From the IMG/VR virus record IMGVR_UViG_3300036651_001908, positions 32,001 to 96,000 of that record: a DNA stretch of 64,000 bases. One strand, 5' to 3'. A program made the position numbers and the translations under genes. The notes under the pieces are model-generated. The model was not told the DNA's origin and made no database searches. It was given only the letters and a program-made list of their open reading frames with translations. The stretch comes from a virus. Of the stretch, positions 174 to 62,692 are shown piece by piece. Each line of letters opens with the position of its first letter. Within the stretch, counting starts at the first letter, position 1.

Positions 174-1288
174 CTGAGCCGCTAGCGCTGAAGTACCGGC
201 CTACCAACTTCGAGGACATCGTCGGCCAGCGCCTCACTGCCGTCGTCCTCGCGCAGATGGTGAAGACCGGCTCAGTGCCAGCGGGCCTCCTGTTCTCCGG
301 GCCGTCTGGGAGTGGCAAGACCACCGCGGCCCGGATCCTCGCATCCGCCCTCACCGACGCCGAACTCGGCTACATCGAGGTGGACGCCGCCAGCAACGGT
401 GGGGTGGACGCCGTCCGGACGATGATCGACTCTCTACGGTTCGGCACCGGCGAGCCTCGCGTCATCGCATACGACGAAGCCCAGTCGATGAGCCGGGAGG
501 CGTACAACGCTCTCCTGAAGACGCTGGAGGAACCACCGCCCGGCGTGCACTTCATCCTGATCACCACCGAGCCGGAGAAGATCCCGGAGACGGTGAAGAC
601 CAGGGTGATGGAGTTCGAGTTCCAGCGCATCCCCACCGAGGCGATCTTCGACCGGATGGTGCAGGTCGTCACCGCCGAGAAGATCAACATCACCGGTGAC
701 CTGCTCCGGCTGCTCACCCACCGGGCGCAGGGCAACCTGCGCACCGCGCTGACCCTGCTGGACCAGGTGTGGCGTGCCGGAATTGGCACAGTTGAGTCAT
801 TTCTGGACCTCCTCGGAGAAGAAGATTTTGCTCCGGCGCTCATCGCAGCGAGTGCCAACGGCGACTTGGAGCAGGTGTTCATCGCCTTCGAAACCCAGAT
901 GGCGCGTGGGGGCAACCCCGGCGTGATCGTGAGTGGGCTGGTGCACTGCTTCCGGGATGTGCTGGTGCTGCGCTCCGGGGGCAAGATCGCCACCACCGGG
1001 CCCGGTCTGGAGGCCCGGATGGAACTGGCCACTAGGCTCGGCCCAGACCGGATCGTCTCCGTGATCAAGTTGCTCTGGGATCTTCGTACCCGTGTCCGCG
1101 CCAGCGACGATCCGGTCTCCAACGTAGAACTCGTTCTCGTGCTGATGACCGACATGTTCGCGCGTGGCAAGGCCGCCGCGCCGCCGATAGTTCATGCTGT
1201 CAAGCCCGTTACCGCGTCGATCCCCGTGCAGGCTCCGCAGCGTCCTTTGACACCGGAAGAACTTCGTCAACGTTTGGCTGGTCGCTGA
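170..1288 (+). CDS. dnaX: DNA polymerase III gamma/tau-like clamp-loader ATPase
   Basis: N-terminal LALKYRPTNFEDIVGQ, Walker A GPSGSGKTT, EVDAASNGGVD, DEAQ, NALLKTLEEPP, ITTEPEKIPETVKTR: canonical DnaX motifs; gamma-length (372 aa). Confidence 0.93.
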   Translation: MTEPLALKYRPTNFEDIVGQRLTAVVLAQMVKTGSVPAGLLFSGPSGSGKTTAARILASALTDAELGYIEVDAASNGGVDAVRTMIDSLRFGTGEPRVIAYDEAQSMSREAYNALLKTLEEPPPGVHFILITTEPEKIPETVKTRVMEFEFQRIPTEAIFDRMVQVVTAEKINITGDLLRLLTHRAQGNLRTALTLLDQVWRAGIGTVESFLDLLGEEDFAPALIAASANGDLEQVFIAFETQMARGGNPGVIVSGLVHCFRDVLVLRSGGKIATTGPGLEARMELATRLGPDRIVSVIKLLWDLRTRVRASDDPVSNVELVLVLMTDMFARGKAAAPPIVHAVKPVTASIPVQAPQRPLTPEELRQRLAGR

Positions 1289-1289
1289 T

Positions 1290-1538
1290 ATGTGGATTCT
1301 GCTTATGCTCGCTGCGATGGTGCTGCCTGAGGCGGGGGTCCTTCTGGCCGCCTGGCTACTTCACCGACGACGAGTGCGGCGGGGTCTCCAGGCCGTGTAC
1401 TCCCTAGCGGCGGAGTTGGTCAGCCACTGCATGCACTGTGGCCGCATGGTCCGCCAGGGCATCGGCTACTGCGACGTGGTCTGCCGACACGGCTACGAGC
1501 GACGATTCAGTTCGTCGCACTGGACAGACTCGGATTAG
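1290..1538 (+). CDS. small membrane protein with Cys cluster
   Basis: Hydrophobic N-terminus, CMHC...CDVVC motif; starts 1 nt after dnaX stop. Confidence 0.6.
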   Translation: MWILLMLAAMVLPEAGVLLAAWLLHRRRVRRGLQAVYSLAAELVSHCMHCGRMVRQGIGYCDVVCRHGYERRFSSSHWTDSD

Positions 1539-10384: not shown

Positions 10385-10461
10385 CTCCGAAAATCTTGTT
10401 TGGCTGCTCCGGTCGATAGTCCCTTCGTGGGCGAAATCTTGTTGGCGCCCGACGACAGGAG

Positions 10462-16400: not shown

Positions 16401-19400
16401 GTTGGCCTTCAACAAGGGCCAGATCCTCGACCTCAACGGCACCTCGATTACACCGGTTGGCTACTCCGGTGGTGTCTCCCTGCTCGATACTCCGACGACC
16501 ATTCCGGCTTTGCTCGACCTCCAGAAGTACCTGGATCAGCATCCGGACCTGTTCAAGACGCCCTACTGGTATGGCGTCACGGACAACTTGTCCGCTGCGG
16601 GTTTCCCTCTGTCGTTGAGCGCATTCGTCAAGGCGTACAACGAAACGGCCGGTCCGGGGATGGCAGCCACCACCGGGCACTACTTCATGCAGGACGCACC
16701 CGCGGATGTGAAGGAGGCGATGGCCAACTTCTTCTCGCAGTCGGTCGCAAATCTTCTTGCGAAGGTGGACACGGCGATCCCCGACGCCAACACGTCGGCC
16801 CTGTTCGACTGGACGACGAACGGCCAGGCGAAGCCCCCGCTCCAGTTGGTCTCGATCCCGAAGATCAGCAGCAGCACCGACCCGGCCACGCTCAACGCGT
16901 ATGTGAAGCAGATCACTGAAGCACTCGGCGCGCAGAAGATTTTCAACCTGACCGGCATGACCAAGTACGCCAAGATGGATTGGATCAACGCGGTCAAGAA
17001 GGGCAACTTCGCCCACGCCTACGATTTGGAGGTCGCGTCACACTCGAACAAGGGGAAGGTGCACCCGTCGGGGTACCTGCACCCGGGCTACGAGGGCAAT
17101 GCGGCGACGAACAAGATCCAGTGGGGTCCCGCAGTCGAGGGCGAGGTCCCGGCTGGTGTTCCGGTCGAGGGTAACTGGACCTCCATCGGTGTGGCTGCTT
17201 CCACCGAGGAGTTGCAGAACTACCTCATCGCAGCGCACATGCAGCACCCGGAGCACCTGACCCTCGCGCAGCAGCGTTCCTGGGTCACGTACCACCGCAC
17301 CGGAGACAAGCAGGCCACGGATCAGTTGTCCGCCATGGCGGCTGTGAAGGCGCAGAACGGCGACCCTCAGATCAGTCCGACTCCGGTGTGGACGGACAAC
17401 GTCCAGCCTGCGAAGTCGTACGCCGTGTGGTTCGACAAGGGTCCGTTCCCCACCGAGAACGACATCTACAACGGGCTCACCGACGCCCCGGCCGAGTACC
17501 TGAAGGACAACGCCGGGAACGCCGAACTCCAGAAGTCGTGGGACGCCTGGTCCTCGCCGTACAAGAACAACTACACCAGCCTTCAGGATATGGCACACGG
17601 CGGCTCCTGGGGCACGCAGAAGAAGTTCCTGACGGATCACTTCACCCGGCTCCGGGAGGAGGCTGCGGCGGAGGAAGCCAAGCCGAAGTTCTCGTTGGTG
17701 AAGGAGATTGCCCAGGGCCAGCATCCCGCCTACCTGGTGGAAGACCACGGCAATCAGTACATCTTCAAGCCGGTGGATCCGGGCAAGGACTACCGTGCAG
17801 AAATCGAGGCGGCTGCCCTGCAACTGGGCGCGCTCTGGGGCTTCACGGAGCCGACGGCATCCGTCCAGTCTCTACCGACTGCCTCCGGCGAGCCCATGTT
17901 CGGTGGCCAGGTTGGCCTCCTCCAGTCCCTGATCCCGAACGTCGGGAACATGAACTTCGCTGACGGCCCGGTGGACATCGCGAGCCTGCACCCGAAGCAG
18001 TTGGGCCAGATCGCTGCCGAGCACGTCCTGGACTGGGCGATCGACAACAACGACGGCCACGGCGACAACCTCCTGATGACCCCGGACGGCAACATCGTCG
18101 GCATTGACAAGGGTCGTGCCTTCGCTGCCTTCGGCACCTGGGACGGGCTGAACGGCCCCGGCATGAACTACCAGGCCGAGACCATCGCTTCCAAACTGTT
18201 CATGCTGGCCAAGGCCGGTGTGCTCACCCAGGAGCAGATGGATGGCGCGTACAAGGCGGCGCTGAAGGCTGCGAACAAGATTTTCAAGTCGCCGGATGCA
18301 TCGGCTGTCTCGATCATCGCGAAGGGCCTGGCGAACCGGCCGCACTACCAGCAGGGTCCCGGCTCGAAGGAAGCCGTCATCCAGGCCTTCCTCGATCGCA
18401 AGCACGGGATCGTGGATGACATCAACAAGTTGTGGACGGGGATCTACGCCAAGTCCGGACTGACCAAGCCGGAGCCTCCCGTCAAGGCCTTGAACGAGGA
18501 CTTGCAGTCTGGCTTCCATGAGCCCGACCTCAGCGCGGCCATTCAGGACAAGGCGGTGTGGGGCGTGACCACGTTCCACGCTTCTCCGGACATCAAGAAG
18601 GGTTCCGTCCTGATTTGGCAGGAGAAGAACTCCAACGGCGATCCGGTCGCCAAGGGGCTGTTCGCCGTCAACAAGTACGCCGAGGGCAAGTTGCTGTCCT
18701 GGCTTGATGGCCATCTCAGCACTGATACCAGTGGCTCGTACGCGAGTGCGCAGTCGCTGGCCAACTTCCCGAACATGGAGCCCTTCCGCAAGGCCCTCTC
18801 CACCGCGGGTCGCGAGGTCAGTGATCACCTGGAGTCCGGGAACCCCAGCCCGGAGGTCATGCAGAAGTTCCAGGAGACCAAGGATCAACTTCTTGCGGAT
18901 GCCCAGTTCGGAGACACCCTTCCCGTCACTGCTGGGCAGGGCACCGATCCGATCAAGTTCCCCTCGGGCAATGCAGTGGATCCGGGCGCGCTGGGTCAGT
19001 ACCGTGCTGCGCTCACCCACTACCTGGACGCCGCTTACGAGGTGGAGCAGGCGCAGAAGGAGCAGCGTAAGACCGAGAAGTCACTGTTCGGGATCTACCA
19101 CCCGATCGCGGCGAAGACCACTCCGGCCACCTACCTGAACCCGGAGAAGGGTCTGGCCTACACCGAACTGACTACCGGAGACTTCATCACGAACATGGGG
19201 GTTGTGGTTCCGGCATCGCAGTTGCCTGACGGGGCGAAGGAGGGCTTGAACGGCTGGACTGCCATCAATGGGGCTCAGCAGTCCAGCGGGCTCACGGTGG
19301 TGAAGGAGCACGCGGGCGACCTGGCCGGGGCACTGAAGGAGGGCGGGCTCAAGGAGCAGTCCGACACCTTCAGCACCGCGGGCCACAATGGTTCGGAGTA

Positions 19401-26987: not shown

Positions 26988-27629
26988 GTGCCCGCACGTA
27001 ATTCAGGCTCAGAGGAGCCGCTGGATCTAGACGATCTTCTCGGCACCGATGAGGACGTGGCTGCGGCTGTCGTCTCGGAGCACCCGGAGATGGTCCCTGC
27101 CGAGTCGGCTGAAGAGCGTCGCATCCGCGAACTCCAGGCTGAACTCGCCAAGCCCGCCCCGAAGAAGAACGCTCGGCCCACTCCCGAGAGCCAGTTGACG
27201 CCGGACCAGAAGAAGATCCGCGACCTCGAAGACCAACTCGCTCGCCGTCGTAGCCAGGAGGCGGACGACGCTGACACCGAGTGGGAGGAAGCCTCAGGTG
27301 AGGGAGAGCGAATTCTTCTTCATGTCTGCGAGGACGGCCTGATCGCCATGGGTGTCGTCTGGTACCGCGGCCAGGAGATTGAGTTCGTCGTCGGCTCCGA
27401 GGCCTACGAGCAGACCAAGGACCGCAACGGCGTCTCCTGGCTGGACATGCTGGACGACATCGACGCGCAGTTCGAGCGCTGGGGCGCCCAGTACATCAAG
27501 CGTGGTCCGTGGCGTGGCAAGAAGTGGGGAGACACCTCTGTGCTCTCCGACCCCGAGGAGATTGCAGCGGCCAAGACCGCTGCCGAAGCCGAGCGTCGGC
27601 GCAACCGCGCTGCACCCGTCATCCGCTAG
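26988..27629 (+). CDS. hypothetical virion-region protein
   Basis: AAGGAGG RBS and late motif at 26962-26970. Confidence 0.8.
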   Translation: MPARNSGSEEPLDLDDLLGTDEDVAAAVVSEHPEMVPAESAEERRIRELQAELAKPAPKKNARPTPESQLTPDQKKIRDLEDQLARRRSQEADDADTEWEEASGEGERILLHVCEDGLIAMGVVWYRGQEIEFVVGSEAYEQTKDRNGVSWLDMLDDIDAQFERWGAQYIKRGPWRGKKWGDTSVLSDPEEIAAAKTAAEAERRRNRAAPVIR

Positions 27630-29084: not shown

Positions 29085-29123
29085 CGGTCCTAGGCAGAAC
29101 AAGATTTAGGAAGGACCAGGCCC

Positions 29124-37990: not shown

Positions 37991-40900
37991 GTGTCGGACT
38001 TCAGGGAAACCGATGTCACGTACAAGGCCAAGGCCAACTTCTCCGAACTGCTTGCCCAGATCGCTGCTGTCAAGGCGGCTATCGATGCTCTCCGTGCGAC
38101 CGAGAAGGATGCGAATTCCGGCTCCACCCAGGAGAACAAGGATGTCGCGGCCTCTCAGAACGCGATCACGAAGTCGCTCAAGGAGCGCGCGGCTGCTCAG
38201 CGGACCCTCAACGATCTAGAGAAGAAGGCCAAGGGCGCCTCTACCGGTGGAACCGCGGGCCAAGCGGGCGGCTCTGCGGTCTCCGACCTCAACGCGGTAG
38301 ACGACGCGCAGAAGAAGGTCAGCAACAGCCGTCGCAAGATGGTCAAGGACACGCAGGATCTGTCCAAGGCCGAGCAGGATCTTGCGGCTGCACGCTTCCG
38401 TGCCTCCGCGGCAGGAGACACCAGCGACCTCTCTCGCATGGGTCTCGAAAAGAAGATTTTCGGCCAGGTCGTGCAGAACATCGCTGCATATAACGATCTG
38501 GAGAAGGCGCAGACCCGGGCAGATACGCACCACGTCTTCGGTCTGCGGGACATCAAGTTCGCTGCCGAAGAGGCGGGGCGGGCCGAGAGTGCCGCGAGTG
38601 ATGCGGGGACGGCAAGTGACTCGCGTCGTGCCGGGAGCATTCGGGCGATCACCTCAGGTCTTCGGGAGCAAGGGGTCGAAGCGGAGAAGACCGCGACCCG
38701 GGTGCAGAATCTCTTCGCGAAGATCGCATCCCTCTCTACCGGTCTCAGTGGCATCATCAATAGGTTGCCTCCTGTGGGCCCTGGCGCGCTTGTCGGAATG
38801 GGGCTCGCTGCTCTTCCGGCGCTCTACCCCATCCTCTCCTCCCTCCTGAACGTCGTCGGTCCTCTGATCGCAGGTTTCGGTGCCCTGGGCGCAGGCACAC
38901 TGGCATTCGCATCGAACCTCGCCTCTCTGTCTGCTGGTCTTGTGGCAGTCGTGCCCCTCATGGCGGGCATGGCCACCATGATGGGCACGATCAAGATGGC
39001 GCTTGCGGGTGTCACCGGGCCCAAGGGTGCCATGGCGTTGTATGCCAGGTGGCAGGATCTGATCGCCCTTGGTGCCTCACCTGCGGTCATCGGTCGGGCC
39101 CAGAAGGCTTATCAGAACGCGTTCCAGTCCTTGGCTCCCGCTGCTCAGCAGTTCGTGACGTGGAACCAAAGCATGCAGAACGCCTTCGATGCCATTCAGC
39201 ATGCGGTCCAGCAGAACTTCTTCGCGCAGTTCGTCAAGGATCTGCACCTGGTCAACGGGCTTCTCCCCCCTCTCGCGAAACTGTTCATGAACACCGCTAC
39301 GGCCATGGGCCAGGTCGTAGACGACATCCTCAAGGCCCTGTCCGGGCCGCGGTGGATCACGGCCATCAATACGTTCGCTGACACGATCGTTCCGCTGATC
39401 GGCGTGGTCAGCAAGACCATCATCAGCACCCTCGGGTTGTTCCGAGACCTGACCATCGCCGCCCTCCCCTTCACGGTCAAGATGGTGAATGGGCTCAACA
39501 ACGTCGTTGCCGGTCTCGTCGCGATGCTGAACACCCCGGGCAGGGCCGCCGCGTTCACTGCCTTCCTCGATGTCGTCTACAGCCGCCTGCTCGTCTGGCT
39601 GGACATCGTCAAGAACATCGCTCTGGTCATGGCCCGCTACAGCAGCGCCGCCTCCGGCTGGAGCAATGATGTTGTCAAGAACTTCGACAAGGTCACCAAG
39701 CACTGGGCGGACATGGCGAAGGCCGCCGAGAAGCCGAACTCAGGATTCAAGAAGTACCTGGAGGAAATCAAGCCGCTCCTTGCCGCCTTCGGCCGACTGG
39801 GCAGTGAAGCCGTCGGCTGGATCAAGCGGATGATGTTCGATCCCCAGAACATCAAGGACATGACGAAGATCGCGGATGCTTTCGGCATCCTCGGTCACGC
39901 CCTTGCCAGTCTGCTTGACACCTTGACCAAGGGCGGCGACTTCTCGGTCATCGTTGACATCGTTGCCCAACTGATCAAGTTGATCGACCAGATTCTGAAA
40001 CTGGGAGGCATCCAGGGCATTCAGGGTGTCTGGAACATCATCGACAACCTGCTGAAGTTCCTGAACGGGCTGCTTGCCTGGGCTTCGAAGGCTCCGGTCA
40101 TCGGGAATGTTCTTGGCCCGATCGTCACCTCGTTGAGTGTGTTGGCGACGCTCTCGTTCATCGGCAAGTTCACGGGCCTGACCGACCTCTTCGCTTCCCT
40201 GATGCTCCTGGCGGGTACTCCTGGGATCCTTGCTGTGCTGGATCGCCTTCCCGGTGTGGTCCCCTTCATGTCGAAGACCGGTGTCAAGTTCACGGACGCC
40301 AAGAACCCCATGCAGCAGACGAAGAATGGTGAGCCGTCTGTCTGGGCCACCAAGCCTTCGAAGAACGACCCGCTCTACAAGTACAACAAGGGCGCCAAGA
40401 TCGGTGACCCCGTCATGGGTCCCGGCATTATCGATGCGGGGGCCATGAGCACCCGGCAGGCTGCGCTTGCCTACGCGAAGCGGCTGAGCGCCTTCCAGGG
40501 CGAGGAGCGCGCCTTCGCCCTTGCCAGTGGTGGGAAGGACACCGCCAGCATCCTTGAGAAGTTGGGGGGCTTCCTGGGCCTCGGGGCCAAGGGTGGTGCC
40601 TTCCGCTCCACCACGCAGGCGCTGATGGATGCGGGCCTCATGGCCAAGGGGGGCAAGGCCTGGGGCCTGGGTGGGCTGCTCGGCAAGGGCATCTCTGGTG
40701 TTGGGAGCAAGATCCTCCCCGGCATCGGTGCCTTGTTCGGGGGCATGGATCTTTTCAACATGACCCAGAACGCGGGCTCCTCGAAGGGCAGCCCGGAGGT
40801 TCAGCGGTTCCTCAAGCACCCGACCCAGGCCAACGCGCTGGCCATGGCCAAGTCCATCAACGGTGGGGTGTGGGGCGGAGCCGGACAGGGGGCGCTCGAT

Positions 40901-43377: not shown

Positions 43378-44211
43378 GTGACGAACACAACCTCGGCGTA
43401 CTGGGCCATCAATGGGACCAGCCTTCAGACCTACGCGTGGAATATCTCCTCGTGGGGAGACAAGCAGACTCTTCCTCCGACGCGTGGCGCAAATCTTCTT
43501 GTGCCGATGGCCACCGGGCAGACCTACGTTCCTAAGGTTCCGGACAGCCGCACCATCACCCTGAACATGTGGGTCTCGGGGGCTAACCCGGATGGCAGCA
43601 TCCCGAGGAACCCCACCGCTCTCGCCACCTTCCAGGCGAATTACGCTGCGTTGCAGGCGCTCTTCTGGAACATCCGAGGCCAGATGCAGTTGTCGCAGGT
43701 GATGACCTACCCGGACGGCACGACACATACCGTCATCGCGCTTGCTGAGTATGCGGGCGGTATGCAGCCGTCGATGCAGGGCCAAGCGGCTGCCGCCTTC
43801 AGTGTGGATCTACTTCTTGCCGACCCATTCTTCTACGGCCCTCAGATCACGCAGACCCTGTCGTCTTCGACCGTCGTGAACGTCGTGGGGGACGACCGCA
43901 CGGACGCAGTCTTCTTCACTCTAAGCGGCGCGCGGAACAACCTGCGCATCCAGAACACCACGATGCTCGCCCAGCCCTACTTCGTCTACAACTACTCCAC
44001 CGCTTCAGGAGACTCCGTCGTCTTCGATGTGCAGAACTTCAAGGTCACTCACACGCCTTCGGGCAGTGGCGCGTATCAGGCCGCGGGGCGAATCAGCCAT
44101 GGAGCCGACCCGTTCTGGCTCCCCCTCGTTCCGGGGAACAACACCATCGCCATGAGCAGCACGTCTGGAACCGGCACGGTAAGCCTGGCTTACCAGCCTA
44201 GGTGGTTCTGA
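43378..44211 (+). CDS. distal tail (Dit-like) protein
   Basis: Follows tape measure; LADPFFYG, LVPGNNTI, C-terminal RWF. Confidence 0.8.
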   Translation: MTNTTSAYWAINGTSLQTYAWNISSWGDKQTLPPTRGANLLVPMATGQTYVPKVPDSRTITLNMWVSGANPDGSIPRNPTALATFQANYAALQALFWNIRGQMQLSQVMTYPDGTTHTVIALAEYAGGMQPSMQGQAAAAFSVDLLLADPFFYGPQITQTLSSSTVVNVVGDDRTDAVFFTLSGARNNLRIQNTTMLAQPYFVYNYSTASGDSVVFDVQNFKVTHTPSGSGAYQAAGRISHGADPFWLPLVPGNNTIAMSSTSGTGTVSLAYQPRWF

Positions 44212-48953: not shown

Positions 48954-49514
48954 ATGTCGTTCATTACTGGTGCACAACTTGCGCGCTTGCTGAATGACTA
49001 TGGCCCTACCGTCGCCTTTCTCACCCTTTTCGTTGTCTCCATCACCGCCCTGATCCTGATGTGGAAGCCGGTCTCGAAGTTCATGACCGCGGTCAACCTC
49101 ATCATCGCGCTTCCGAAGCGCATGGACGAGCAGGACGCATTGGTCGCGGAGGGGCAAACCAAGGTCGCAGAGATGCACAAGGATCTGGACACGCACATCA
49201 AGGAAGGTGCGCCCTGGATCACGAAGTTGGATGAGGTGGAGAAGCAGGTCCACGTCGTTCTCCAGCAGCAGGCGGAGGTCGTCCACGAGGTGAAGCCCAA
49301 TAGCGGGACCTCGATGAAGGATGCGCTGAACCGCATCGAGAATGAAGTTCTACCGGCGTTGGCGAAGCAGATGTCGGCGTTGGGCGCTGCTGAGAAGAAG
49401 CAGTCCACCCGCGTCAACGATCGTCACGACGCGGAGGACGAGCAGGCTGCGGCGAAGCCCGCGCCCCGTCGTCGGGCACTACGCAAGCCGACCGATAGTA
49501 CCGAAGAGCCCTGA
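48954..49514 (+). CDS. membrane protein with coiled coil (lysis cassette)
   Basis: One N-terminal TM; HEVKPNSGTSMKDALNRIE motif common in actinophage lysis-region proteins. Confidence 0.75.
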   Translation: MSFITGAQLARLLNDYGPTVAFLTLFVVSITALILMWKPVSKFMTAVNLIIALPKRMDEQDALVAEGQTKVAEMHKDLDTHIKEGAPWITKLDEVEKQVHVVLQQQAEVVHEVKPNSGTSMKDALNRIENEVLPALAKQMSALGAAEKKQSTRVNDRHDAEDEQAAAKPAPRRRALRKPTDSTEEP

Positions 49515-49524: not shown

Positions 49525-50100
49525 ATGAGAAATCTTCTTTCCAAGGTCTGGTGGGAGGCCGCTGGTGGTCGTGCTCTACGCACGGCGATCGTCGTCACCC
49601 TGCCGTACCTGCCAGCCATCTACGTCGGCCAGATCCCGTATCTGGTCATCCTCTCCACCGCGGGTCTCGCGGCCATCCTCTCGCTGCTCACCTCGGTGGT
49701 GGGGCTGCCTGAGGTTGATGGCAAGAACCCTGTCTGGTGGTTCGCCATCGCAGAGCGTGTGGTCAAGACCATCGCGCAGGCGATCGTCGCCGGGATCGGC
49801 AACGCTGTGCTGATCCAGGATGTGCACTGGCCGAACATCCTCCAGGCTGCTCTCGCTGCGGGCTTCGGCTCGCTCCTGTTCGCGTTCCTGAAGGATCTGC
49901 CTGAGACCACCGTGCCGACGGCAGTCACTCCTGTCGCTCCCATCCCGGTCATCATCAGTGGCCCTGTCACCACGACCTCCGGTGCTGTGAGTGCGAACGT
50001 GACCTATACATCCAACCCCGCATCGGCTACAGTGCCCACCGACTCGGCGCCCGCCGAGATTCCAACCAAGGAGACAGTCCTCGATGAACCCGCTCAGTGA
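49525..50100 (+). CDS. holin, tandem r1t-like domains
   Basis: Two copies of WW.A..ER/GR..KT/RT..; LSLLTSVVGLPEV; GAGGAG RBS; late motif at 49491. Confidence 0.8.
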   Translation: MRNLLSKVWWEAAGGRALRTAIVVTLPYLPAIYVGQIPYLVILSTAGLAAILSLLTSVVGLPEVDGKNPVWWFAIAERVVKTIAQAIVAGIGNAVLIQDVHWPNILQAALAAGFGSLLFAFLKDLPETTVPTAVTPVAPIPVIISGPVTTTSGAVSANVTYTSNPASATVPTDSAPAEIPTKETVLDEPAQ

Positions 50101-50603: not shown

Positions 50604-52280
50604 ATGCTGAGATACGACACACGCAACTTCTCGAACTCGCAGCGTGAGGCCCTGGCCTGGAAGGCGCACGAGTACAAGGACTTCGCGCTCCCTCCGCTGA
50701 CCGCCTGGAACTATGCCCTCTGCCGGAAGCACCGCAACGGCTGGGTAGAACAAGATTTCAACGAGGCCGGTGAGGTCACCGCCGAGCGCACCGTGTACGA
50801 CCGGCCCATGCCGGGCTGCCGCCAGTGTGGGATCCACTTCCGCAAGCACCAGCGGGTCAGCATCATGTGGCTTTATCTGAAGAAGAGAGCCCTCCTCGCT
50901 GACACCATGGGCACCGGCAAGACCACGAGCGCTGCCGGGCTCATCGCCCTCCTTCTAGAGACCGGGGAACTCCCGGAGGTGGGCCGCGTCGTCATCGTCC
51001 CTCGGGCACCGGCGCTGTACCAGTGGCGGGAGGAACTGCTGCGGATGATCCCGGGGCTGGACATCGCCATGGCGGAGGGCACGAAGCGCAAGCGGATGGA
51101 GACCTACTCCAGCGAGTGGCAGGTGCTCCTCATCGGCCCCGAGATGCTGAGGCAGAAAGATGATTTCGCTGCACTCCGGCACATCCCGCTGGCTGCCCTC
51201 ATCTGTGACGACATCGACCCGCTCCGCAACCCGGATACCGAGACCTCGTACACCCTGGACAAGTTGGGGGAGCAAGCCGACCGGTACGTGATCATGTCTG
51301 GCACCCCGCTCCAGAAGCGTCTCCCGGAACTGCACGCCGTTCTCGACGGCATTGGTGGCCTGGGTGCTCTGGGAGGTTTGGACGCCTTCACCCGACGCTA
51401 CGTTCGCAGTGAGTGGGTGGTGGACCACGACCGCTCCGGCCGGGAGTTCAAGCGGCAGCAGATCGTGGGCTACCAGAACCTCGATGAACTCAAGCGGAAG
51501 ATGGCTCCCCTCGTGCTGCGCCGCACCGCCGACGACCTCGATGACGTGGACCTCCCCGCCATCCAGCCGGAGGACGTGTTCCTCTCGCTCTACCCATCGC
51601 AGCGCGCGAAGTATGACGAACTCCGTCAGGGCGTCATCCGGATCATGAAGGAGCAGGGCACGGAGGTCAAGCACACCACCGCGCTCTCCCGCATCCACTA
51701 CGGAGCAGCCATCTGCGCCGGGCTCGCTGCCCTGGGTGAGCCGGACGGTCCGCGCACCAGCGTGAAGTTGGACTGGATCGAGAGCAAGTTGATGGACGGG
51801 GGTGACCTGGAGGACGAGAAGGTGGTCATCTTCGCCCGGCTGAAGAACTCGGTCCGCGCGCTCCAGGCCCGGCTCACCGCCCGGGGCATCGGCTTCGAGA
51901 CGGTGTGGGGTGACGAGCCCGACAAGCGGAAGCGGCATGCCAGTCAGCAGAGGTTCTGGGAGGACCCAGCCTGCCGGGTGATGATCGGTACCAGCGCCAT
52001 GGAGCAGAGCCTGAACCTCCAGGTCAGCCGTCACCTCATCAACGCCGACATGATCCTGAACCCTGCGCGTATGGCACAGTTGGCAGGCCGCATCCGGCGA
52101 GACGGCAGCGCATACCGCACGGTGTATGTACACAACCTGCTCACACATGACACCCAGGAGGCGCGGTACCTCGCCGTGCTGGAGCGGGAGGCGGCGCTGG
52201 CCAGCCACATCTGGGACGAGACGGACGAACTCTTCCGCTCGCTCTCCTCCACCGAACTGCTTCGCCTGATCACGGGCTGA
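50604..52280 (+). CDS. SNF2-family helicase/ATPase
   Basis: LLADTMGTGKT, MSGTPLQ, VLRRT, KVVIFA, QSLNLQ, QLAGRIRRDG; motif II reads DDID. Confidence 0.9.
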   Translation: MLRYDTRNFSNSQREALAWKAHEYKDFALPPLTAWNYALCRKHRNGWVEQDFNEAGEVTAERTVYDRPMPGCRQCGIHFRKHQRVSIMWLYLKKRALLADTMGTGKTTSAAGLIALLLETGELPEVGRVVIVPRAPALYQWREELLRMIPGLDIAMAEGTKRKRMETYSSEWQVLLIGPEMLRQKDDFAALRHIPLAALICDDIDPLRNPDTETSYTLDKLGEQADRYVIMSGTPLQKRLPELHAVLDGIGGLGALGGLDAFTRRYVRSEWVVDHDRSGREFKRQQIVGYQNLDELKRKMAPLVLRRTADDLDDVDLPAIQPEDVFLSLYPSQRAKYDELRQGVIRIMKEQGTEVKHTTALSRIHYGAAICAGLAALGEPDGPRTSVKLDWIESKLMDGGDLEDEKVVIFARLKNSVRALQARLTARGIGFETVWGDEPDKRKRHASQQRFWEDPACRVMIGTSAMEQSLNLQVSRHLINADMILNPARMAQLAGRIRRDGSAYRTVYVHNLLTHDTQEARYLAVLEREAALASHIWDETDELFRSLSSTELLRLITG

Positions 52281-53943: not shown

Positions 53944-55407
53944 ATGGCCGATGCTCGTGAGCATGCGGCGGTGATCTTCGCGGCGCTGATCCCTGGTCGG
54001 AAAGACCTGCTCGATTCAGCCCGCGGTCAACTCACCCCCGAGCACTTCCCGGACGCCGTCCAGCGGCAGTTCTGGAAGATCATCTCCTACTACGCCGAGC
54101 GCACCGGCAGCGTCCTGACGGACACCGCGCTCAGCGACATCACCCGGACCCTCGACGCTGGCAAGCAGGCGCTGTACCAGCAGGTGTTCGACAGCGCGTT
54201 CAAGCGCACGGTGGGCGACGACGACTTCACCTGGTCCCTCGACCAGATCCGGGAACTCGCAGCCGACCAGGCCACCGCAGCGGTCCTCGCCACCTCGCAG
54301 CAGATCCTCCGGCAAGGCTGGGAAGACCCCACCGGCACGACGTTGCAGGGGCAGGAGGATGCCCGCACCTACCTGCTGGAAGCCCTGGCCGCGATCGACG
54401 CTGATCTGCTCCACCAGGCTTCACCCGAGGGCACGATCCAGGACGATGAGGACCGGTTCCTCAAGCAGTACGCACAGCGCAAACAAGATTTTCAGAGCGG
54501 TGTCAGCCATGGCATCGGCTTCGGCCTCCGCGACCTGGACGAGAAGGTGGGCGGCCTCCAGCCTGGTGACCTCGTGCTCATTGCGGGCTACTCGTCGGAC
54601 GGCAAGTCCTCCATGGCTGTGCAGTTGGCCTGGAGCGCAGCCGTGGAGCAGGGGAGGAACGTCCTCTTCTTCACGACCGAGACGGTGTACGAGACGACCG
54701 AGCGGAGGATCTTCGCCCGGCACAGCAAGCAGCCGGTGTTCGGACTCCGTGAGGGTCTGGACACCAAGGATCTAAAACTCGGACGGCTGAAGCCCCACGA
54801 GGAGCAGGCGCTGCCCATCGTGGTCGGGGACCTCGCGCGCAACCCGGCGTACGGGAAGATCCACATCAAGCAGGTGCCCCGGCAGGCCAACATCGCCACG
54901 CTGGAAGCGCACGCCATGACGGTCTCCCGGCAGATGAAGATCGACCTCATCGTGATCGACTACCTGGCGCTGCTCTCCTCCGACTCCCGGCGCACCACCG
55001 ACCGTGAGTCTCTAGCCGGGATCATCAAGGCCAGCAAGGTCTGGGCCACCACCTTCGACAACGGCCGGGGTGTGCCGATCGTCAGCCCGTGGCAGGTGAA
55101 CCGTGCCTCCCGAGACGCAGCGCTCAGGGACGGCTACTACTCCTCCTCCGCGCTGGCTGACACGGCGGAGGCCACGAACTCCTCCGACGTGATCGTGAGC
55201 CTGCTGGCACCGGCTGACAACGAGGGCCGCTACGCCGAGGTGCGGGGCCAGGTGCTGAAGAACCGAGACGGTCAGACCAGCAACTCGCTCCTGCTGGACG
55301 TGGACTACGCCACCAGCACGTTCACGTCCAAGGCGTCCATCTCCTTCGACAGTTTCGCTGCGGCAGCGGGCGCGACGGCAGAGGGTCTGGACGACCTCCT
55401 GCAATGA
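53944..55407 (+). CDS. dnaB: replicative DNA helicase, DnaB-like
   Basis: GGLQPGDLVLIAGYSSDGKS, FFTTE, IVIDYLALL, QVNR, KNRDG. Confidence 0.92.
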   Translation: MADAREHAAVIFAALIPGRKDLLDSARGQLTPEHFPDAVQRQFWKIISYYAERTGSVLTDTALSDITRTLDAGKQALYQQVFDSAFKRTVGDDDFTWSLDQIRELAADQATAAVLATSQQILRQGWEDPTGTTLQGQEDARTYLLEALAAIDADLLHQASPEGTIQDDEDRFLKQYAQRKQDFQSGVSHGIGFGLRDLDEKVGGLQPGDLVLIAGYSSDGKSSMAVQLAWSAAVEQGRNVLFFTTETVYETTERRIFARHSKQPVFGLREGLDTKDLKLGRLKPHEEQALPIVVGDLARNPAYGKIHIKQVPRQANIATLEAHAMTVSRQMKIDLIVIDYLALLSSDSRRTTDRESLAGIIKASKVWATTFDNGRGVPIVSPWQVNRASRDAALRDGYYSSSALADTAEATNSSDVIVSLLAPADNEGRYAEVRGQVLKNRDGQTSNSLLLDVDYATSTFTSKASISFDSFAAAAGATAEGLDDLLQ

Positions 55408-55558: not shown

Positions 55559-55999
55559 ATGCAGAACCGCACCCTCTGGCACGCACCGGACCTGACGATG
55601 GTGGACGAGCCGCTACTGCTGTCTCTAGTCAAGTACCGGCTACACAAGGACCGGCAGTTGCTCCCGCCCTTCCCGGAGTTCGAGGCGCAGGCAAATCTTG
55701 TTTCCTCGTACACCCTGGACGACAAGCAGATGCCGATCCTCGACCTGGACTTCGACCACCTCGTGGTGGAGTCCACCACCGACGGGCACCACCACCTGTA
55801 CATCAACGTGCCGATGAGCCGGATGAAGTGGCGCGTCCTCATGCTCGTGCTGTGGTGGACCGGCGTGGTGGAGATGGGCAACGCGGTCTGGTCTCTTCGT
55901 CGCGGGGCGAACTTCGTCCGTCCGCCTCAGGTGAAGAAGACAGCGGTCGAGAGCGTCAAACCGACGTACGGCTGGATCTTCAAACTCAAGGAGCACTGA
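55559..55999 (+). CDS. hypothetical protein with AEP/prim-pol-like DxD and HxH motifs
   Basis: PILDLDFD...STTDGHHHLY; TATGAT shortly upstream of ATG. Confidence 0.6.
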   Translation: MQNRTLWHAPDLTMVDEPLLLSLVKYRLHKDRQLLPPFPEFEAQANLVSSYTLDDKQMPILDLDFDHLVVESTTDGHHHLYINVPMSRMKWRVLMLVLWWTGVVEMGNAVWSLRRGANFVRPPQVKKTAVESVKPTYGWIFKLKEH

Positions 56000-57608: not shown

Positions 57609-57625
57609 CCCGTCGCATATATAGT
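57597..57625 (+). promoter_or_regulatory. host SigA-type promoter
   Basis: TTGACG-N17-TATAGT, followed by a hairpin-rich leader (13-bp stem 57703-57738). Confidence 0.7.
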
Positions 57626-58555: not shown

Positions 58556-58684
58556 CCAAGGCGCACATCGGGATCATCACCCTGTGGTGTCCCGTGTGTC
58601 AGGAGGATGGCGTAGCCTATTCAGTCATGGTGGCGAACGCCTGGATCCGACACCACGACAACCTTCACGCTCTAGAGGACTCCG

Positions 58685-59123: not shown

Positions 59124-60103
59124 TGTCCACGTTTTCGGCCTGGTGGAAGGCCTACCAGGATGGCAAGGGCATCCGGCAGATCACTTACGTCTGCGGCACC
59201 GAGAAGATCCTGGTGGATGAGGTGGTCGGTGGCATCCAGCGCTCGGTGGCCGACGCATGGGGATCCATGAACCTGGCGGTCACCGAGACCAATCAGCGGG
59301 AAATCTGGGAGATGCTGGACCGGCGTCCGATGTTCTACACCAACGCACTCACCGTGCTCTACCACGCGCAGGAACTCCAGGACACCCAGCGGCTGTGGGA
59401 GTGGTGGAAGAACAAGAAGTACAACCCGCACCACTATCTAATTCTTGTTTCTGATCTGGACGCCGCGCCCCGCCAGCAGGTCGGTGACCCGAAGGAGCAC
59501 AAGACCGAGGTCGTCCCCCACCTGCGCTTCGGTGCCGCGGGCTGGCTCATCGAGTGCAAGCCCTTCACTCAAGCCACCACGTCCACCGCCGTCCAGTGGG
59601 TGCGCTCGAAGGTGGAGATGACCGACGCCGTCGCCGGGCACCTGCTCAACCGTGCCGATGGTGACCTCCGGCTGGTGCGGGACGCGACCCAGAAACTCAA
59701 GGTGTTCCCTGGCACCATCACCCAGAGTGTGATCAACGACCTCTTCACCGCCGTGCCCCGTGACTCCTTCGTGGATGCCCTGCTCGCCCTCGACAAGAAG
59801 ACTGCCCTCGCCGCGCTGGAGCGCCTGCCCACCGAGGACTACTCCAGGACGCTGGGCATGCTGGACTCGTCTCTAGAACTGGCGGGGACGGTCCATGACT
59901 TCGAGACGAACAACAAGCCGAGGCTCGAACTGATCAAGGCGGCAGGCAAGAAGGCTTGGCTGCTGCCGGAGGTGGAGAAGGTCGCGAAGCACTACGACCT
60001 GAAGCGGCGCAACCGGACGCGGCAACTGCTGCTCATGGCCGACGAAGCCCTCCAGGGTGGCGAGACCACGGGAGTGTTCGAGTCGCTGGTGGCGCTGTGG
60101 TAA
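59123..60103 (+). CDS. holA: DNA polymerase III delta-like clamp-loader subunit
   Basis: YVCGTEKILVDE, GDLRLVRDATQKL, ITQSVI, FVDALL...KTAL, ADEALQGG: HolA-like layout, 326 aa. Confidence 0.7.
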   Translation: MSTFSAWWKAYQDGKGIRQITYVCGTEKILVDEVVGGIQRSVADAWGSMNLAVTETNQREIWEMLDRRPMFYTNALTVLYHAQELQDTQRLWEWWKNKKYNPHHYLILVSDLDAAPRQQVGDPKEHKTEVVPHLRFGAAGWLIECKPFTQATTSTAVQWVRSKVEMTDAVAGHLLNRADGDLRLVRDATQKLKVFPGTITQSVINDLFTAVPRDSFVDALLALDKKTALAALERLPTEDYSRTLGMLDSSLELAGTVHDFETNNKPRLELIKAAGKKAWLLPEVEKVAKHYDLKRRNRTRQLLLMADEALQGGETTGVFESLVALW

Positions 60104-60309
60104 AGCGCGCCCGCAACTACCGGCTCGGCAAGTGGGGGTACCGAGGGGTGCGCTACCACGAGCACTCGGACCTGTTCCAAGCCCGGTGCTGTGGTGAGGA
60201 GACCTACCACGAGGAGCCCGAGGACGCCGCCCGCGCGTACGATGCCATGGCCAAGAGGCACTTCGGTGACTCCGCCATCCTGAACTTCCCGGAGGAGACC
60301 GATGACTAG
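60097..60309 (+). CDS. stand-alone AP2 DNA-binding domain protein
   Basis: GYRGV...FQAR...EDAARAYDAMAKRHFGDSAILNFP. Confidence 0.8.
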   Translation: MVKRARNYRLGKWGYRGVRYHEHSDLFQARCCGEETYHEEPEDAARAYDAMAKRHFGDSAILNFPEETDD

Positions 60310-62692
60310 GAACTACGCGGCGATTCGGTCAGCCGAAAAGTTTGAGGCCTTCGTGCAGCGCCTTCTCGAAGAGGGCAAGCCGTTCGGGTTCGACATCGAA
60401 TCCGGCTACTCCGGTCCAGACCTGGCAGGAGCAGCGCTGCTGCCCTTCCATCCCCGCTGGATCATGACGGGGTTCTCCTTCACGAACAGTGTCGAATGGG
60501 GCCGTTACGTCCCGGTCGCCCATGACACCGGGCAGAACGTAGACGACCCCCGGCGCACGGCGGCGGCGTTGTGGCGGCTCTTGCAGAGCGGTAAGGGTGT
60601 GGCGCATAACGCTTCCTTTGAATTGTTGGGGCTGTCGCGGTGGTTCCGAGACATGCTCTCGGATGATCCTGAACTCGGCCTGGAAGTACACAAGTCGAAG
60701 GGCACGTTCCCGATCTACAGCGACACGCTCATCGAGGCCTACTGCACCGGGCTGTTCGCTCCGCAGAACACTGGCGGCCCCGGCATCGGCCTGAAGGGGC
60801 TGACCAAGTTCGTCTTCGACCACCAGATGGTGGAGTTCAAGAGTTTGTTCGACAAGTATACGACGAAGGTGAGGTTCAACTCTCTACCGCCCGAGGGTGT
60901 CAACGTCGAATACGCCTGCGAAGACAGTGTGTGGTGCCTGGCCCTGCACCTGAAGCACTACCCGCTGGTGAAGGACTCGTTCATCTTCAAGACCGAGATG
61001 CAGTTGCAGCCGGTGCTGACCGAGATGGAGATGGAAGGCCTGCTTCTCGACTGGGGGAAGATCCACGAGAAGACTGAGGAGGTGCAGCACTTCCGCGACA
61101 GGATGAACGAGGAAATCATGGCCAACCTCTCCGAGCGGATGGGCGAGGTCATCAACTTCAACCTGGCCTCCACCAAGGAACTCGGAAATCTTCTTTTCGA
61201 ACGGCTCGGCCTGCCGATCAAGAACCGTAGCGAGAAGACCGGCGCCGCATCCACGAGCGAGAAGGCGCTGCACGCCATCGCCCAGCGGGATCCCGTCGTC
61301 GCTCGCGTCCTGGAGTACCGCGAGGTCAACAAACTCCTTGGCTCCTACCTCCGCAAGTACGACACCGAACTCAACTACTGCGACTGTGGCCGAGCCCACC
61401 CGAACCACAAGCAGACGGGGGCAGCGACCGGCCGCATGTCGGTGGACCAGGTCTCGTATCAGCAGTGGCCGAAGCCGTACCACTACGAACTTGGTGACGG
61501 CACGACCTTCGACCTGAACTTCCGCGACCTGCTCATCTCCCCGAAGGAGTACCGCATCGTCGGCTACGACTTCAGTCAGGTGGAGTTGCGTGTGCTCGCA
61601 GGGCTGGCCAACGAGACGGCTCTACTCAAGGCCTTCGCGGACGGCACCGACATCCACAAGGCCACGGCCAGCCAGATGATGGGCATCCCGCTCGACCAGG
61701 TCACGAAGAAGCAGCGCGCCCAGGGCAAGACGCTGAACTTCGCGGTGGTCTACGGCTCCGGGCCCGCGAACATCGCTGAACTGCTGACCACCCCCGATGC
61801 CCCGGTCACCACCGAGGACGCTCAGGAACTCCTCTCGAAGTACTTCGCCGCCTTCTCCAACCTCAAGGGCTGGATGGATGAGCAGGTGGAGTTCGGGCGC
61901 AAGAACAAGTACGTGCTCACACCGTTCGGCCGTCGCTTCACCATCTGGGAGTACGACTCCCACAACGGCTGGATCGTCAGCAAGGGTGACCGCATGTGCG
62001 TGAACGCCCCGGTGCAGGGCGGCGCTGCGGATTACATGAAGATCGGCATGGTGCGGGCGCAGCGGGCGATCAAGAAGGCCGGGCTCCAGGAGAAGATCCG
62101 CCTGGTGATGACAGTGCACGACGCCCTGGAGTTCTACGTGCACGAGTCGGTCAGCACGCAGGAGGTCATCGATCTGATCACGCCGCAGGTGTCGTTCAAG
62201 GTGAAGCACCTGCCGAACCTGCCGGAGATTCTGGCCGAATGGCACGAGGGTCCGACGTGGGGCAGCGTGGTGGATGTGCTGCTCGACGCTGAGAAGCACG
62301 TCACCGGCTATGAACTGGATGGGGTGGAGGGGATCTTCGAGACGTGGCAGGAAGTGCTGGCGGCTACCACCGCCGAGCCTGATCCGGTGACCGAGCCCGA
62401 GGAGGAACAGGGAAGTCCCATCCCGGTAGAGTCACATGTCTCTGGATACACCATCTCGATCCCGCGGATGCCTGATGAGCAGCAACTGACATCGTTCCTC
62501 GCTTTCATGAATGAACACCCCGGGTCTCATCCGGTGGTCGTTGCGAGTCCTGCTGGCAACATCACCATGGAGACGAGACATACGCTGCCACCGTTTGCTG
62601 TGACTCAGATCAGTATTCTTCTCGGCGGCGCATCGGTCACTGAGACCAGGGAGAACTCGCTTGAAAATCTTGTTCGGGAGTTGGAACTGTGA
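60302..62692 (+). CDS. polA: family A DNA polymerase (3'-5' exo + pol) with C-terminal extension
   Basis: FDIES, HNASFE, YACED (exo); TGRMS, DFSQVELRVLA, RAQGKTLNFAVVYG, VQGGAAD, VHDAL (pol). Confidence 0.95.
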   Translation: MTRNYAAIRSAEKFEAFVQRLLEEGKPFGFDIESGYSGPDLAGAALLPFHPRWIMTGFSFTNSVEWGRYVPVAHDTGQNVDDPRRTAAALWRLLQSGKGVAHNASFELLGLSRWFRDMLSDDPELGLEVHKSKGTFPIYSDTLIEAYCTGLFAPQNTGGPGIGLKGLTKFVFDHQMVEFKSLFDKYTTKVRFNSLPPEGVNVEYACEDSVWCLALHLKHYPLVKDSFIFKTEMQLQPVLTEMEMEGLLLDWGKIHEKTEEVQHFRDRMNEEIMANLSERMGEVINFNLASTKELGNLLFERLGLPIKNRSEKTGAASTSEKALHAIAQRDPVVARVLEYREVNKLLGSYLRKYDTELNYCDCGRAHPNHKQTGAATGRMSVDQVSYQQWPKPYHYELGDGTTFDLNFRDLLISPKEYRIVGYDFSQVELRVLAGLANETALLKAFADGTDIHKATASQMMGIPLDQVTKKQRAQGKTLNFAVVYGSGPANIAELLTTPDAPVTTEDAQELLSKYFAAFSNLKGWMDEQVEFGRKNKYVLTPFGRRFTIWEYDSHNGWIVSKGDRMCVNAPVQGGAADYMKIGMVRAQRAIKKAGLQEKIRLVMTVHDALEFYVHESVSTQEVIDLITPQVSFKVKHLPNLPEILAEWHEGPTWGSVVDVLLDAEKHVTGYELDGVEGIFETWQEVLAATTAEPDPVTEPEEEQGSPIPVESHVSGYTISIPRMPDEQQLTSFLAFMNEHPGSHPVVVASPAGNITMETRHTLPPFAVTQISILLGGASVTETRENSLENLVRELEL

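Follow-up and report, generated by a model that had tools for sequence, protein, structure and literature searches.

AAATCTTSTT, a dispersed 10-nucleotide word of a soil actinophage genome and a possible genome-wide recognition site

Introduction

Dispersed words that selection has written into coding sequence are rare and informative, and each known class of such words, namely Chi, uptake sequences, stoperators and nick sites, has led to a dedicated protein machine. The present analysis concerns AAATCTTSTT (S, C or G), an asymmetric word that recurs in both orientations along 64,000 nucleotides of viral DNA. This stretch, the window, covers bases 32001-96000 of virus record IMGVR_UViG_3300036651_001908, a single contig of 123,755 bp. 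The phage genome studied is called G000, while G001, G002, G004, G006, G009, G016 and similar labels denote related virus records; positions are those of the window unless given as genome positions.

DNA uptake sequences, such as the DUS of Neisseria and the USS of Pasteurellaceae, are stand-alone words of 9-12 nt whose density is kept by selection and whose orientation is free. Copies occur in terminator hairpins and, in preferred frames, within genes, and the dialects of different lineages differ in the first bases. Known Chi sites are G-rich words of 5-8 nt, known primase sites are trinucleotides, and we know of no primase site of 10 nt. parS sites are palindromic, and the Cluster K start-associated sequences consist of a conserved asymmetric word that stands directly upstream of start codons and is directional.

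The stoperators of Cluster A mycobacteriophages (L5, Bxb1, TipsytheTRex) are described in PMC9283540 as intergenic and as oriented with transcription, and immunity groups have their own site dialects. For phage tf, PMC3517423 reports 14 nicks in 46 kb, or one per 3.3 kb, at an asymmetric 9-mer with two degenerate positions, TACT/RTGMC, which according to that text is found nowhere else in the genome. The tf genome has short direct terminal repeats, the function of the nicks is given there as unknown, and in tf, as in T5 and the phiKMV-like phages, a single strand carries all the nick sites. Among host enzymes, mycobacterial topoisomerase I (TopoI) is sequence-specific for C(G/T)CTT(C/G) (PMC6379724), and all bacterial topoisomerase I enzymes prefer a cytosine at position -4 (PMC6101483).

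Enrichment and Distribution of the Word

A first-pass annotation of the window had reported 17 exact copies of AAATCTTSTT, and a direct count returns the same 17 sites, strand by strand (Table 1). It had put the expectation at well under one copy, in agreement with the 0.02 copies (sd 0.14, maximum 1) found in 100 dinucleotide-preserving shuffles of the window; the GC content that it had assumed, about 65%, was too high, the actual value being 62% (62.4% for G000). The count for the whole genome is 37, or 36 unique copies once the one within the 361-bp terminal repeat (2 mismatches) is set aside, at a density of about one copy per 3.4 kb or about 290 per Mb. An unbiased scan puts AAATCTT first among the enriched 7-mers of G000 (62 occurrences vs 6.3 expected), and the two forms of the full word are its most enriched 10-mers (19 vs 0.10 and 18 vs 0.26).

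Positions 1-7 and 9-10 of the word are invariant by construction of the search. Among 29 classes that carry a single substitution, only AATTCTTSTT (9 copies), AAATCATSTT (6) and AAATCTTSAT (5) are enriched, the other 26 having 0-3 copies each, and the word is no less strict at positions 1-3 and 9-10 than in its core. One-mismatch copies in the window number 9, vs 3 for a reversed control pattern, and the three near matches singled out by the first-pass annotation are real. The flanks are AT-rich with only weak preferences, and no other position within +/-45 nt of the word is conserved in G000 or in its distant relative G001 (none above 0.45 bit). A literature search for six 10-mers gave, as the matches listed, primers and oligonucleotides from unrelated fields.

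The copies are spread over the whole chromosome. Every 10-kb bin of G000 and of G001 is occupied by at least one copy, and the spacing is indistinguishable from Poisson, with coefficients of variation of 0.85 and 0.79-0.86 vs 0.96-0.98 at random placement. Both strands of G000 are used, with 25 copies on the + and 11 on the - strand. The central 70 kb carries 10 + and 8 - copies, mostly deep within genes, and the right arm has a split of 10:0; orientation shows no mirror image toward the two ends of the genome.

At the level of structure, two populations are present. Nine core-only copies and one full copy, among the 62 AAATCTT cores, sit in strong GC-rich hairpins placed 16-30 nt past the stops of minus-strand genes, all outside the window, in which TCTT pairs with AAGA of the upper stem; these hairpin-borne copies are a family of terminator-like repeats. 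In two intergenic hairpins (genome 3532 and 12462) the loop consists exactly of a full copy, and the coding copies are without structure, with z-scores around 0.

Coding Context

By our own gene calls, 14 of the 17 window copies are coding and three intergenic, and 22 of the 36 copies of G000 fall in called coding sequences (CDS); the calls are heuristic and missed at least two open reading frames (ORFs), the sigma-factor gene and 29124-29549, and make these counts approximate. The word is read in several framings. Seven of the eight sense copies in the window are spelled xxA AAT CTT STT and one AAA ATC TTG TTT, while the six antisense copies divide equally between AAS AAG ATT TTC and GAA/AAA SAA GAT TTY. 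The different frames and rare codons to which the first-pass annotation had drawn attention are thus confirmed, the codons in question being used at 0.02-0.13 within their families (AAT 0.13, CTT 0.08, GTT 0.10, ATT 0.12, TTT 0.05, AAA 0.05, AGA 0.02).

Protein sequence does not explain the copies, as had also been claimed. The excess might have vanished once codons were shuffled, a check that the first-pass annotation had put forward; run genome-wide with 300 shuffles for each scheme, such shuffles leave it in place. Against the 22 copies in CDS, within-gene synonymous shuffling gives 2.49 +/- 1.22 (maximum 7), shuffling of codon order 0.14 (maximum 1), and synonymous shuffling with the next base kept 6.07 +/- 1.28 (maximum 11). 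In particular, the tripeptide N-L-L is spelled AAT CTT CTT in 5 of 16 cases and N-L-V is spelled AAT CTT GTT in 3 of 7. The word is enriched 2- to 2.6-fold in intergenic DNA. The enrichment is independent of coding, frame, orientation and structure, and within genes selection acts at synonymous sites.

Relatives and Turnover of Sites

A dialect that differs in one base is found in a distant relative. G001 (125.8 kb, 65% GC, with direct terminal repeats by its IMG/VR class) carries GAATCTTSTT 28 times, with 0 copies of the reversed control; GAATCTT is its most enriched word (67 vs 10.1), and GAATCTTCT occurs 40 times vs 1.5. The GAATCTT copies are split 37+/30- although nearly all genes lie on one strand, and they occur in all frames and are unstructured. 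For GAATCTTST, present 49 times (strands 28:21), 39 copies lie in CDS, 22 in the same sense as the gene and 17 antisense, and 10 are intergenic. The first base is commonly G, an initial A being peculiar to G000.

Fifteen further large relatives were counted over their whole records for AATCTTSTT and its reversed control. The counts are 15 vs 3 in G002, 13 vs 0 in G006, 11 vs 1 in G016, 5 vs 2 in G009 and 4 vs 1 in G015; G004, G003 and G005 have 3, 2 and 2 copies with a control of 0 each, and the remaining seven have 0-1. In G002, G006 and G016 the shorter AATCTTST is mostly antisense (26:11, 20:5 and 14:2), its first base is variable and many copies lie at Lys-rich N-termini; we read this excess as coding bias. 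Some form of the word is present in the clade nearer G000 (terminase 57-62% identical) and none in the outer clade (43-51%). Magritte, a singleton siphovirus of Microbacterium (PMC11663251) and the only cultured relative of G000, has no AAATCTT; its top words are promoters, and motifs are not mentioned in its genome note (PMC11663251).

Scanning IMG/VR with the capsid gave 80 loci, 50-72% identical. AAATCTTSTT is enriched in none of them (a single copy in 3, zero in the rest), and the capsid scans returned no close relative of G000 (best 72%) or of G001 (best 65%); the other collections searched yielded none either. The one or two copies in the closest capsid relatives were set aside as a conserved peptide, and other enriched words in relatives as tandem repeats in proteins or elements between genes; scanning IMG/VR for a tandem-word pattern was abandoned, with at least 118 chance matches in AT-rich contigs. 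The best match of a metagenome scan with the polymerase was 60% identical and without the word, and an endolysin scan of bacterial genomes returned no relative.

G000 and G001 share 46 reciprocal-best orthologue pairs. Sites were aligned in those pairs that hold any (A/G)AATCTT, with 18 sites in G000 and 28 in G001, the giant-gene pair (3 and 5 sites) being left out. A single pair of sites falls within 4 residues, in opposite orientation and in unrelated local sequence, so that the true coincidences number 0. For example, N-L-V-S-S is encoded by AAT CTT GTT TCC TCG in G000 and by AAC CTC GTG TCC TCG in G001, R-G-A-N is followed by CTT CTT in the former and by ATC GTC in the latter, and F-E-K-I-F-W contains AAG ATT TTC in G000 and AAG GTC TTC in G001. 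Selection thus acts on density, which is conserved, while the positions turn over.

Host Genomes

Actinobacterial genomes were selected with a 16S primer. RAATCTTSTT (R, A or G) occurs 1-15 times in five genomes of 4.4-7.3 Mb, and it is rare in 301 Actinomycetes genomes, with at most 25 copies in genomes of at least 2.4 Mb (at most about 10 per Mb). Genomes of about 1.4 Mb have up to 65 copies, and their reversed-control counts are raised too. Five of the 301 genomes are unpublished (G283, G027, G056, G063, G035) and hold 1-12 copies each; the rarity holds without them. A 5-10-fold excess of RAATCTTSTT over the reversed control is common in Actinomycetes genomes. The word is therefore no genome-wide signal of the host-type genomes searched.

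Promoters

Two other enriched words of G000 have the anatomy of promoters. TTCATACTGCGATGGTA resolves on the minus strand to a -35 TTGCAT, 17 nt, a -10 TACCAT, 6 nt and ATG, the layout of the early promoters of the left arm, which are leaderless and of host type. The third word, (C)CGATAGTA(C), precedes nine structural or lysis genes (1632, 10414, 21128, 23203, 26964, 36342, 43348, 48878 and 49493), and its boxes have no common -35 element; it is probably a late promoter read with the phage sigma factor. AAATCTTSTT itself was ruled out as an early or late promoter, the early word (TTGCAT-17-TACCAT-6-ATG) and the late word (CGATAGT) being separate elements, and also as a promoter of the sigma-70 or phage-sigma type, with no second element at fixed spacing within +/-45 nt. 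Its enrichment is independent of promoters. The observation that two copies flank the promoter of the giant gene was correct, since those at 10391 and 10434 lie around a promoter-like CGATAGT box at 10414.

About a dozen near-identical early units are present outside the window (genome 4600-9200, 115833 and 121582). Each consists of a GC-rich terminator hairpin followed by the same -35, 17 nt, -10, 6 nt and leaderless ATG, and in nine of them AAATCTT lies in the loop or upper stem of the hairpin. Boxes related to the late word, namely CGATAGTA, CGATACTC and GATATCCC, are top words in many relatives.

Possible Recognition by a Phage Protein

The explanation to which we give most weight, while holding it tentatively, is that a DNA-binding protein encoded by the phage recognises AAATCTTSTT in a sequence-specific manner and acts genome-wide. 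The word would stand alone on double-stranded DNA, and selection would maintain it throughout the chromosome, about once per 3.4 kb, wherever protein sequence or an intergenic gap permits and in either orientation. We infer that the reader is a protein and that the phage encodes it, and likewise what its occupancy would do. It would probably be monomeric, and would occupy its sites in a mode like that of Cluster A operator/stoperator networks or of chromosome-organising proteins with their dispersed sets of sites. Occupancy could also gate expression at a few copies, such as those on either side of the CGATAGT box at the giant gene, the one in codons 2-5 of the holin-like gene and several directly before a Shine-Dalgarno (SD)-ATG.

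The first-pass annotation had likewise proposed a genome-wide binding site, and a genome-wide DNA-level signal is what stands of this proposal; the assignment to stoperators or parS does not, because most copies lie in genes with free orientation, the word is asymmetric and no ParB domain is present in the proteins scanned. Pfam (E<=0.01) was run on 102 distinct G000 proteins, about half of roughly 200 genes, covering the small and unassigned called genes of the window but not its terminase, portal, capsid, helicase, polymerase, single-stranded DNA-binding protein (SSB) and two tiny ORFs. Of the binders that had been suggested, neither a ParB-like nor an AP2 domain was found in the 102 proteins, and the giant protein has no Pfam match.

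Other proteins of the phage may bind DNA. A sigma-70 family factor (52634-53365, +) has Pfam regions 2, 3 and 4 and is labelled 'DNA binding protein' in Magritte; it is kept in 10 of 11 comparison genomes (no match in G010), motif-free ones included. A WhiB-like protein encoded outside the window (genome 26493-26855, -), with a Cys cluster and a basic C-terminal tail, is confined to G000, G001 and G006 among 12 genomes. Further candidates are an HTH_23 protein (genome 110007-110327, -), sub-threshold zinc-finger (7485-7859), RHH (9763-10074) and MarR (20720-20965) matches and a VapB-like antitoxin. Among the 102 proteins no immunity repressor (HTH plus stoperator domain) and no integrase was recognised, the latter not having been specifically sought, and gene-content profiling across relatives is confounded by phylogeny.

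Several points weigh against a genome-wide binding protein. No binder was identified among the 102 proteins scanned, and no DNA-binding gene is exclusive to G000 and G001; the correlation with WhiB rests on three related genomes, and three distant WhiB-encoding viral records have 0 copies of the word. Most copies are within genes, far from promoters. The association with gene starts is weak in G000, where 10 of 36 copies lie within -60..+30 of called starts in both orientations, vs 5.2 expected (P=0.03), and it is not significant in G001 (11 of 49 vs 7.5 expected); together with the placement in genes, this does not indicate a classical regulator. G000 and G001 do not pair as closest relatives, and nearer ones are without the strong word, which requires repeated loss or independent expansion. 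Finally, a site-specific nickase fits the same anatomy equally well, strand use apart.

Alternative Explanations

Such a nickase is the main rival to the genome-wide binding protein, and a possible though unlikely one: the word would mark single-strand nicks of the T5/phiKMV/tf type, with a phage nickase cutting at or in it in packaged DNA. The density is the same as that of the tf nicks, both G000 (361 bp) and G001 have terminal repeats, direct ones in the latter, and a bias to the + strand is present in G000 (25:11, with 10:0 in the right arm), as are related sites on a single strand in Magritte (8) and in G004 (5). However, both strands are used, with 10:8 in the central region of G000 and 28:21 in G001, and no HNH or other nickase-candidate nuclease is found among the 102 scanned proteins. 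Contigs cannot show nicks, and none of the piece ends listed for the low-depth soil runs X4-X6 falls at the word. At the high depth of run X1 (about 230-415), one of five junctions over 20 kb abuts a copy: two contigs overlap by 30 nt (49504-49533) and break exactly at the copy at 49530, which may be chance or a strain fork beginning in the word.

It is improbable that the word is a 'self-tag', a dispersed identity sequence of the phage with lineage dialects (A-first in G000, G-first in G001). A phage-encoded machine would by this means tell phage from host DNA without base modification, and the tag could, for instance, protect phage DNA against a nuclease of the phage itself or guide factors for packaging, replication or transcription to it. 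It would then be the viral counterpart of the bacterial DNA uptake sequences.

A host enzyme or factor might instead read the word, for instance an actinobacterial topoisomerase I that is drawn to strong sites and relaxes phage DNA during heavy transcription and replication, which we regard as quite improbable. The word contains TCTT(C/G), and its sole degenerate position matches the C/G of the mycobacterial site; in the published register, however, in which the -4 cytosine is the first C of the hexamer, all 36 copies have A there, so that five of six positions match, and the bases outside the core, at positions 1-3 and 9-10, are no less strict than it. The substrates of type IA enzymes are single strands, two copies form exact hairpin loops (genome 3532 and 12462), and the flanks are AT-rich; no topoisomerase gene was seen among the annotated G000 proteins, and an even spread that is free of orientation would suit the control of topology. 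There is no evidence here for Mycobacterium as host.

More doubtful still is a replication or recombination signal for the machinery of the phage, be it a set of primase start sites or a Chi-like hotspot of the RecA/Mre11 type. G000 encodes a suitable set of proteins (DnaB-like helicase, primase homologue, PolA, clamp and clamp loader, SSB, and RecA-like and Mre11-like proteins), and the use of both strands and the even spread are as priming or recombination would need. On the other hand, words of the Chi type are over-represented in host genomes and this word is not, there is no mirror-image orientation toward the genome ends, and the replication genes are conserved in relatives without the word.

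The next alternative has very little probability left: an element acting in RNA or at translation starts, like the Cluster K start-associated sequences, with the other copies as noise. Elements of this sort are present in the relatives. Magritte carries A(C/G)AAGATTCGGAG 8 times in one orientation, only in its early region (84.5-99 kb) and at SD/ATG; G004 has ctccGAATCTTCT 5 times on one strand (88-104 kb), associated with starts, and G002 has GGAGAAGAATCATG about 15 times genome-wide, again start-associated. In the arms of G000, five copies read AASAAGATTT on the sense strand just ahead of an SD-ATG (genome 1372, 105436, 109652, 114457 and 114719). This fits only a handful of the 36 copies, the central 70 kb being split 10 + / 8 -, and G001 has 25-31 copies per orientation on a one-strand genome, where antisense copies cannot act in mRNA; the orientation data already contradict this explanation for the bulk of the sites.

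The last, that the word has no reader and is a by-product of restriction-site avoidance together with codon or mutational bias, has an equally slim chance and is already contradicted for most sites. AGATCT is avoided in G000 (2 sites vs 15-25 expected), AAATCT/AGATTT is one step from it, and its avoidance forces ATT in K-I-(F/S/Y) contexts, so that the suggestion that K-I-F copies arise in this way holds for the tripeptide itself, spelled AAG ATT TTC in 5 of 5 cases. It does not extend to the rest, since respelling with the commonest codons would create AGATCT in only 7 of 21 coding copies of G000 and is clean in 14 of 21, and in 36 of 39 in G001. The 5-10-fold excess in Actinomycetes genomes and the excess in G002, G006 and G016, which resembles coding bias, would agree with a by-product; about 15 intergenic copies are left unexplained, avoidance of a 6-mer cannot fix four further bases (TSTT), and the enrichment is at least 100-fold, in sense frames made entirely of rare codons.

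Avoidance of palindromes is extreme in these genomes. G000 and G001 are devoid of AGCT, for which about 425 and about 409 sites are expected, and G002 has a single one (about 473 expected); CTCGAG, CTGCAG, GCCGGC, GTCGAC, GACGTC, GAGCTC, CAGCTG and other 6-mer palindromes are absent, which points to heavy restriction pressure on unmodified DNA. TCTAGA is enriched about 2-fold in G000 and occurs only once in G001. A second dispersed word, the 8-bp palindrome CTCTAGAG, has 8 sites (16 both-strand counts vs 1.6 expected), mostly within genes (7543, 50109, 52381, 58044 and 58670; genome 514, 16881 and 105342).

Genome Context

G000 is a soil actinophage of about 124 kb, with a siphovirus-type genome that has its own replisome and its own sigma factor; the WhiB-family gene argues for an actinobacterial host. 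It is present as contigs in 6 soil-metagenome runs, with no RNA run listed among them, and four of these, compared over 42700-62699, hold the same strain in long pieces without differences. More than 80% of the genes in this phage family have no identifiable homologues (PMC11663251), and the map of the window rests on annotation transferred from Magritte and on Pfam. Terminase, portal and a MuF-like protein come first, followed by a giant gene without a family and by a GH25 lysin, scaffold/protease, decoration protein and capsid (24965-26008, separate from the giant gene). A tail block, including a tape measure of 1782 aa, then leads to the holin-like gene. The replication block holds helicase, sigma-70-family factor, DnaB, primase homologue, clamp-loader parts and PolA, after which the SSB gene (63309-64304) extends beyond the window end; genes for the RecA-like recombinase and for an RNase T-type exonuclease lie just past it.

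The giant gene (10468-20547, +) encodes 3359 aa with no Pfam family. Partial homologues of 1968-3237 aa occupy the same place in G001, G002, G006 and G016, and the protein has no tblastn match in Magritte. Only two minus-strand genes were called in the window, that of the VapB-like antitoxin (22844-23080, Pfam 3e-15) and a doubtful ORF of 38 aa (52727-52843); HicA-like homologues are present elsewhere in G000. Three tRNA genes lie outside the window at genome 15343-15656, namely Tyr-GTA, Leu-CAA and a third with a four-base anticodon, acaa (ARAGORN). A scan of the window with Rfam gave no family at the gathering score.

Table 1. Copies of the word, its variants and neighbouring promoter boxes in the window
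Feature	Position	Strand	Context
Exact copy AAATCTTCTT	819..828	-	Antisense in clamp-loader gene (170-1288); sense codons GAA GAA GAT TTT (EEDF)
Exact copy AAATCTTGTT	10391..10400	+	Intergenic, 13 nt upstream of CGATAGT box
Promoter-like CGATAGT box	10414..10420	+	Ahead of giant gene, word copy on each side
Exact copy AAATCTTGTT	10434..10443	+	Intergenic, 13 nt downstream of box, ~20-25 nt before giant-gene start
Exact copy	16749..16758	+	Sense, giant gene; GCA AAT CTT CTT (ANLL)
Exact copy	18274..18283	-	Antisense, giant gene; AAC AAG ATT TTC (NKIF); ATT forced by AGATCT avoidance
Variant AATTCTTCTT	27311..27320	+	Class with 9 copies genome-wide
Exact copy	29098..29107	-	Intergenic, past terminator-like hairpin; + strand AACAAGATTT-aggaagg-...-ATG of ORF 29124-29549
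Exact copy	32712..32721	+	Sense, 1130-aa gene; AAA ATC TTG TTT (KILF)
Exact copy	34533..34542	+	Sense, 20 nt into tail-terminator homologue; CAA AAT CTT GTT (QNLV)
Variant AAATCATCTT	35064..35073	+	Class with 6 copies genome-wide
Core-only copy AAATCTTCCT	35797..35806	+	
Exact copy	38450..38459	-	Antisense, tape-measure gene; AAG AAG ATT TTC (KKIF); ATT forced by AGATCT avoidance
Exact copy	42509..42518	-	Antisense, tape-measure gene; KKIF; ATT forced
Exact copy	43491..43500	+	Sense, Dit-like tail gene; GCA AAT CTT CTT (ANLL); aligned G001 orthologue GCC AAC ATC GTC
CGATAGT box	49493..49499	+	Ahead of holin-like gene
Exact copy	49530..49539	+	Codons 2-5 of holin-like gene; AGA AAT CTT CTT (RNLL); starts 37 nt after box start
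Exact copy	50749..50758	-	Antisense, helicase gene; GAA CAA GAT TTC (EQDF)
Variant AAATCATCTT	51157..51166	-	
Exact copy	54482..54491	-	Antisense, DnaB-like helicase gene; AAA CAA GAT TTT (KQDF)
Exact copy	55693..55702	+	Sense; GCA AAT CTT GTT (ANLV); G001 orthologue keeps N-L-V-S-S as AAC CTC GTG TCC TCG
Variant AATTCTTGTT	59440..59449	+	
Exact copy	61186..61195	+	Sense, DNA polymerase I; GGA AAT CTT CTT (GNLL)
Exact copy	62665..62674	+	Polymerase gene 3' end, 14 nt before GTG of next gene; GAA AAT CTT GTT (ENLV)

Comparison with Known Systems

For the annotation of such genomes, clusters of rare codons can be DNA signals and not translation features. The reader of the word would also provide a handle on an uncultured actinophage lineage whose only isolate is Magritte.

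Cluster A stoperators resemble the word as short asymmetric sequences with more than 20 copies across an actinophage genome (36 unique copies in G000), and they are read by a monomeric phage protein (PMC9283540). They are, however, 13-mers placed in promoters and short intergenic gaps of temperate phages, whereas the word of G000 is a 10-mer with 22 of 36 copies in CDS; their orientation follows transcription, in contrast to the 22 same-sense and 17 antisense copies of G001 and the 10 + and 8 - copies of central G000. The nick sites of T5 and tf share with the word an over-represented asymmetric consensus of about 9 nt, a similar density and direct terminal repeats, and differ from it in that the known nick words are on one strand only, while that of G000 is on both.

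The site of mycobacterial TopoI is four bases shorter than the word, which is equally strict over the additional bases. The Cluster K start-associated sequences have their likeness in the elements of Magritte and G004 and in a few copies of G000, most copies of which are neither directional nor bound to starts. The asymmetry of the word and the lack of a ParB domain among the 102 scanned proteins separate it from parS/ParB. Uptake sequences are words of bacterial chromosomes read by a competence pilin, whereas this word is phage-only and rare in 301 Actinomycetes genomes; Chi and uptake sequences are strongly over-represented in the host chromosome, and RAATCTTSTT is not in the genomes sampled, with at most about 10 per Mb in those of at least 2.4 Mb vs about 290 per Mb in the phage.

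Collectively, the word departs from every class that it resembles in the properties that define that class, and its reader, once found, would prove to be a new regulator or organiser acting genome-wide on phage chromosomes, or else part of the first nick system to use two strands.

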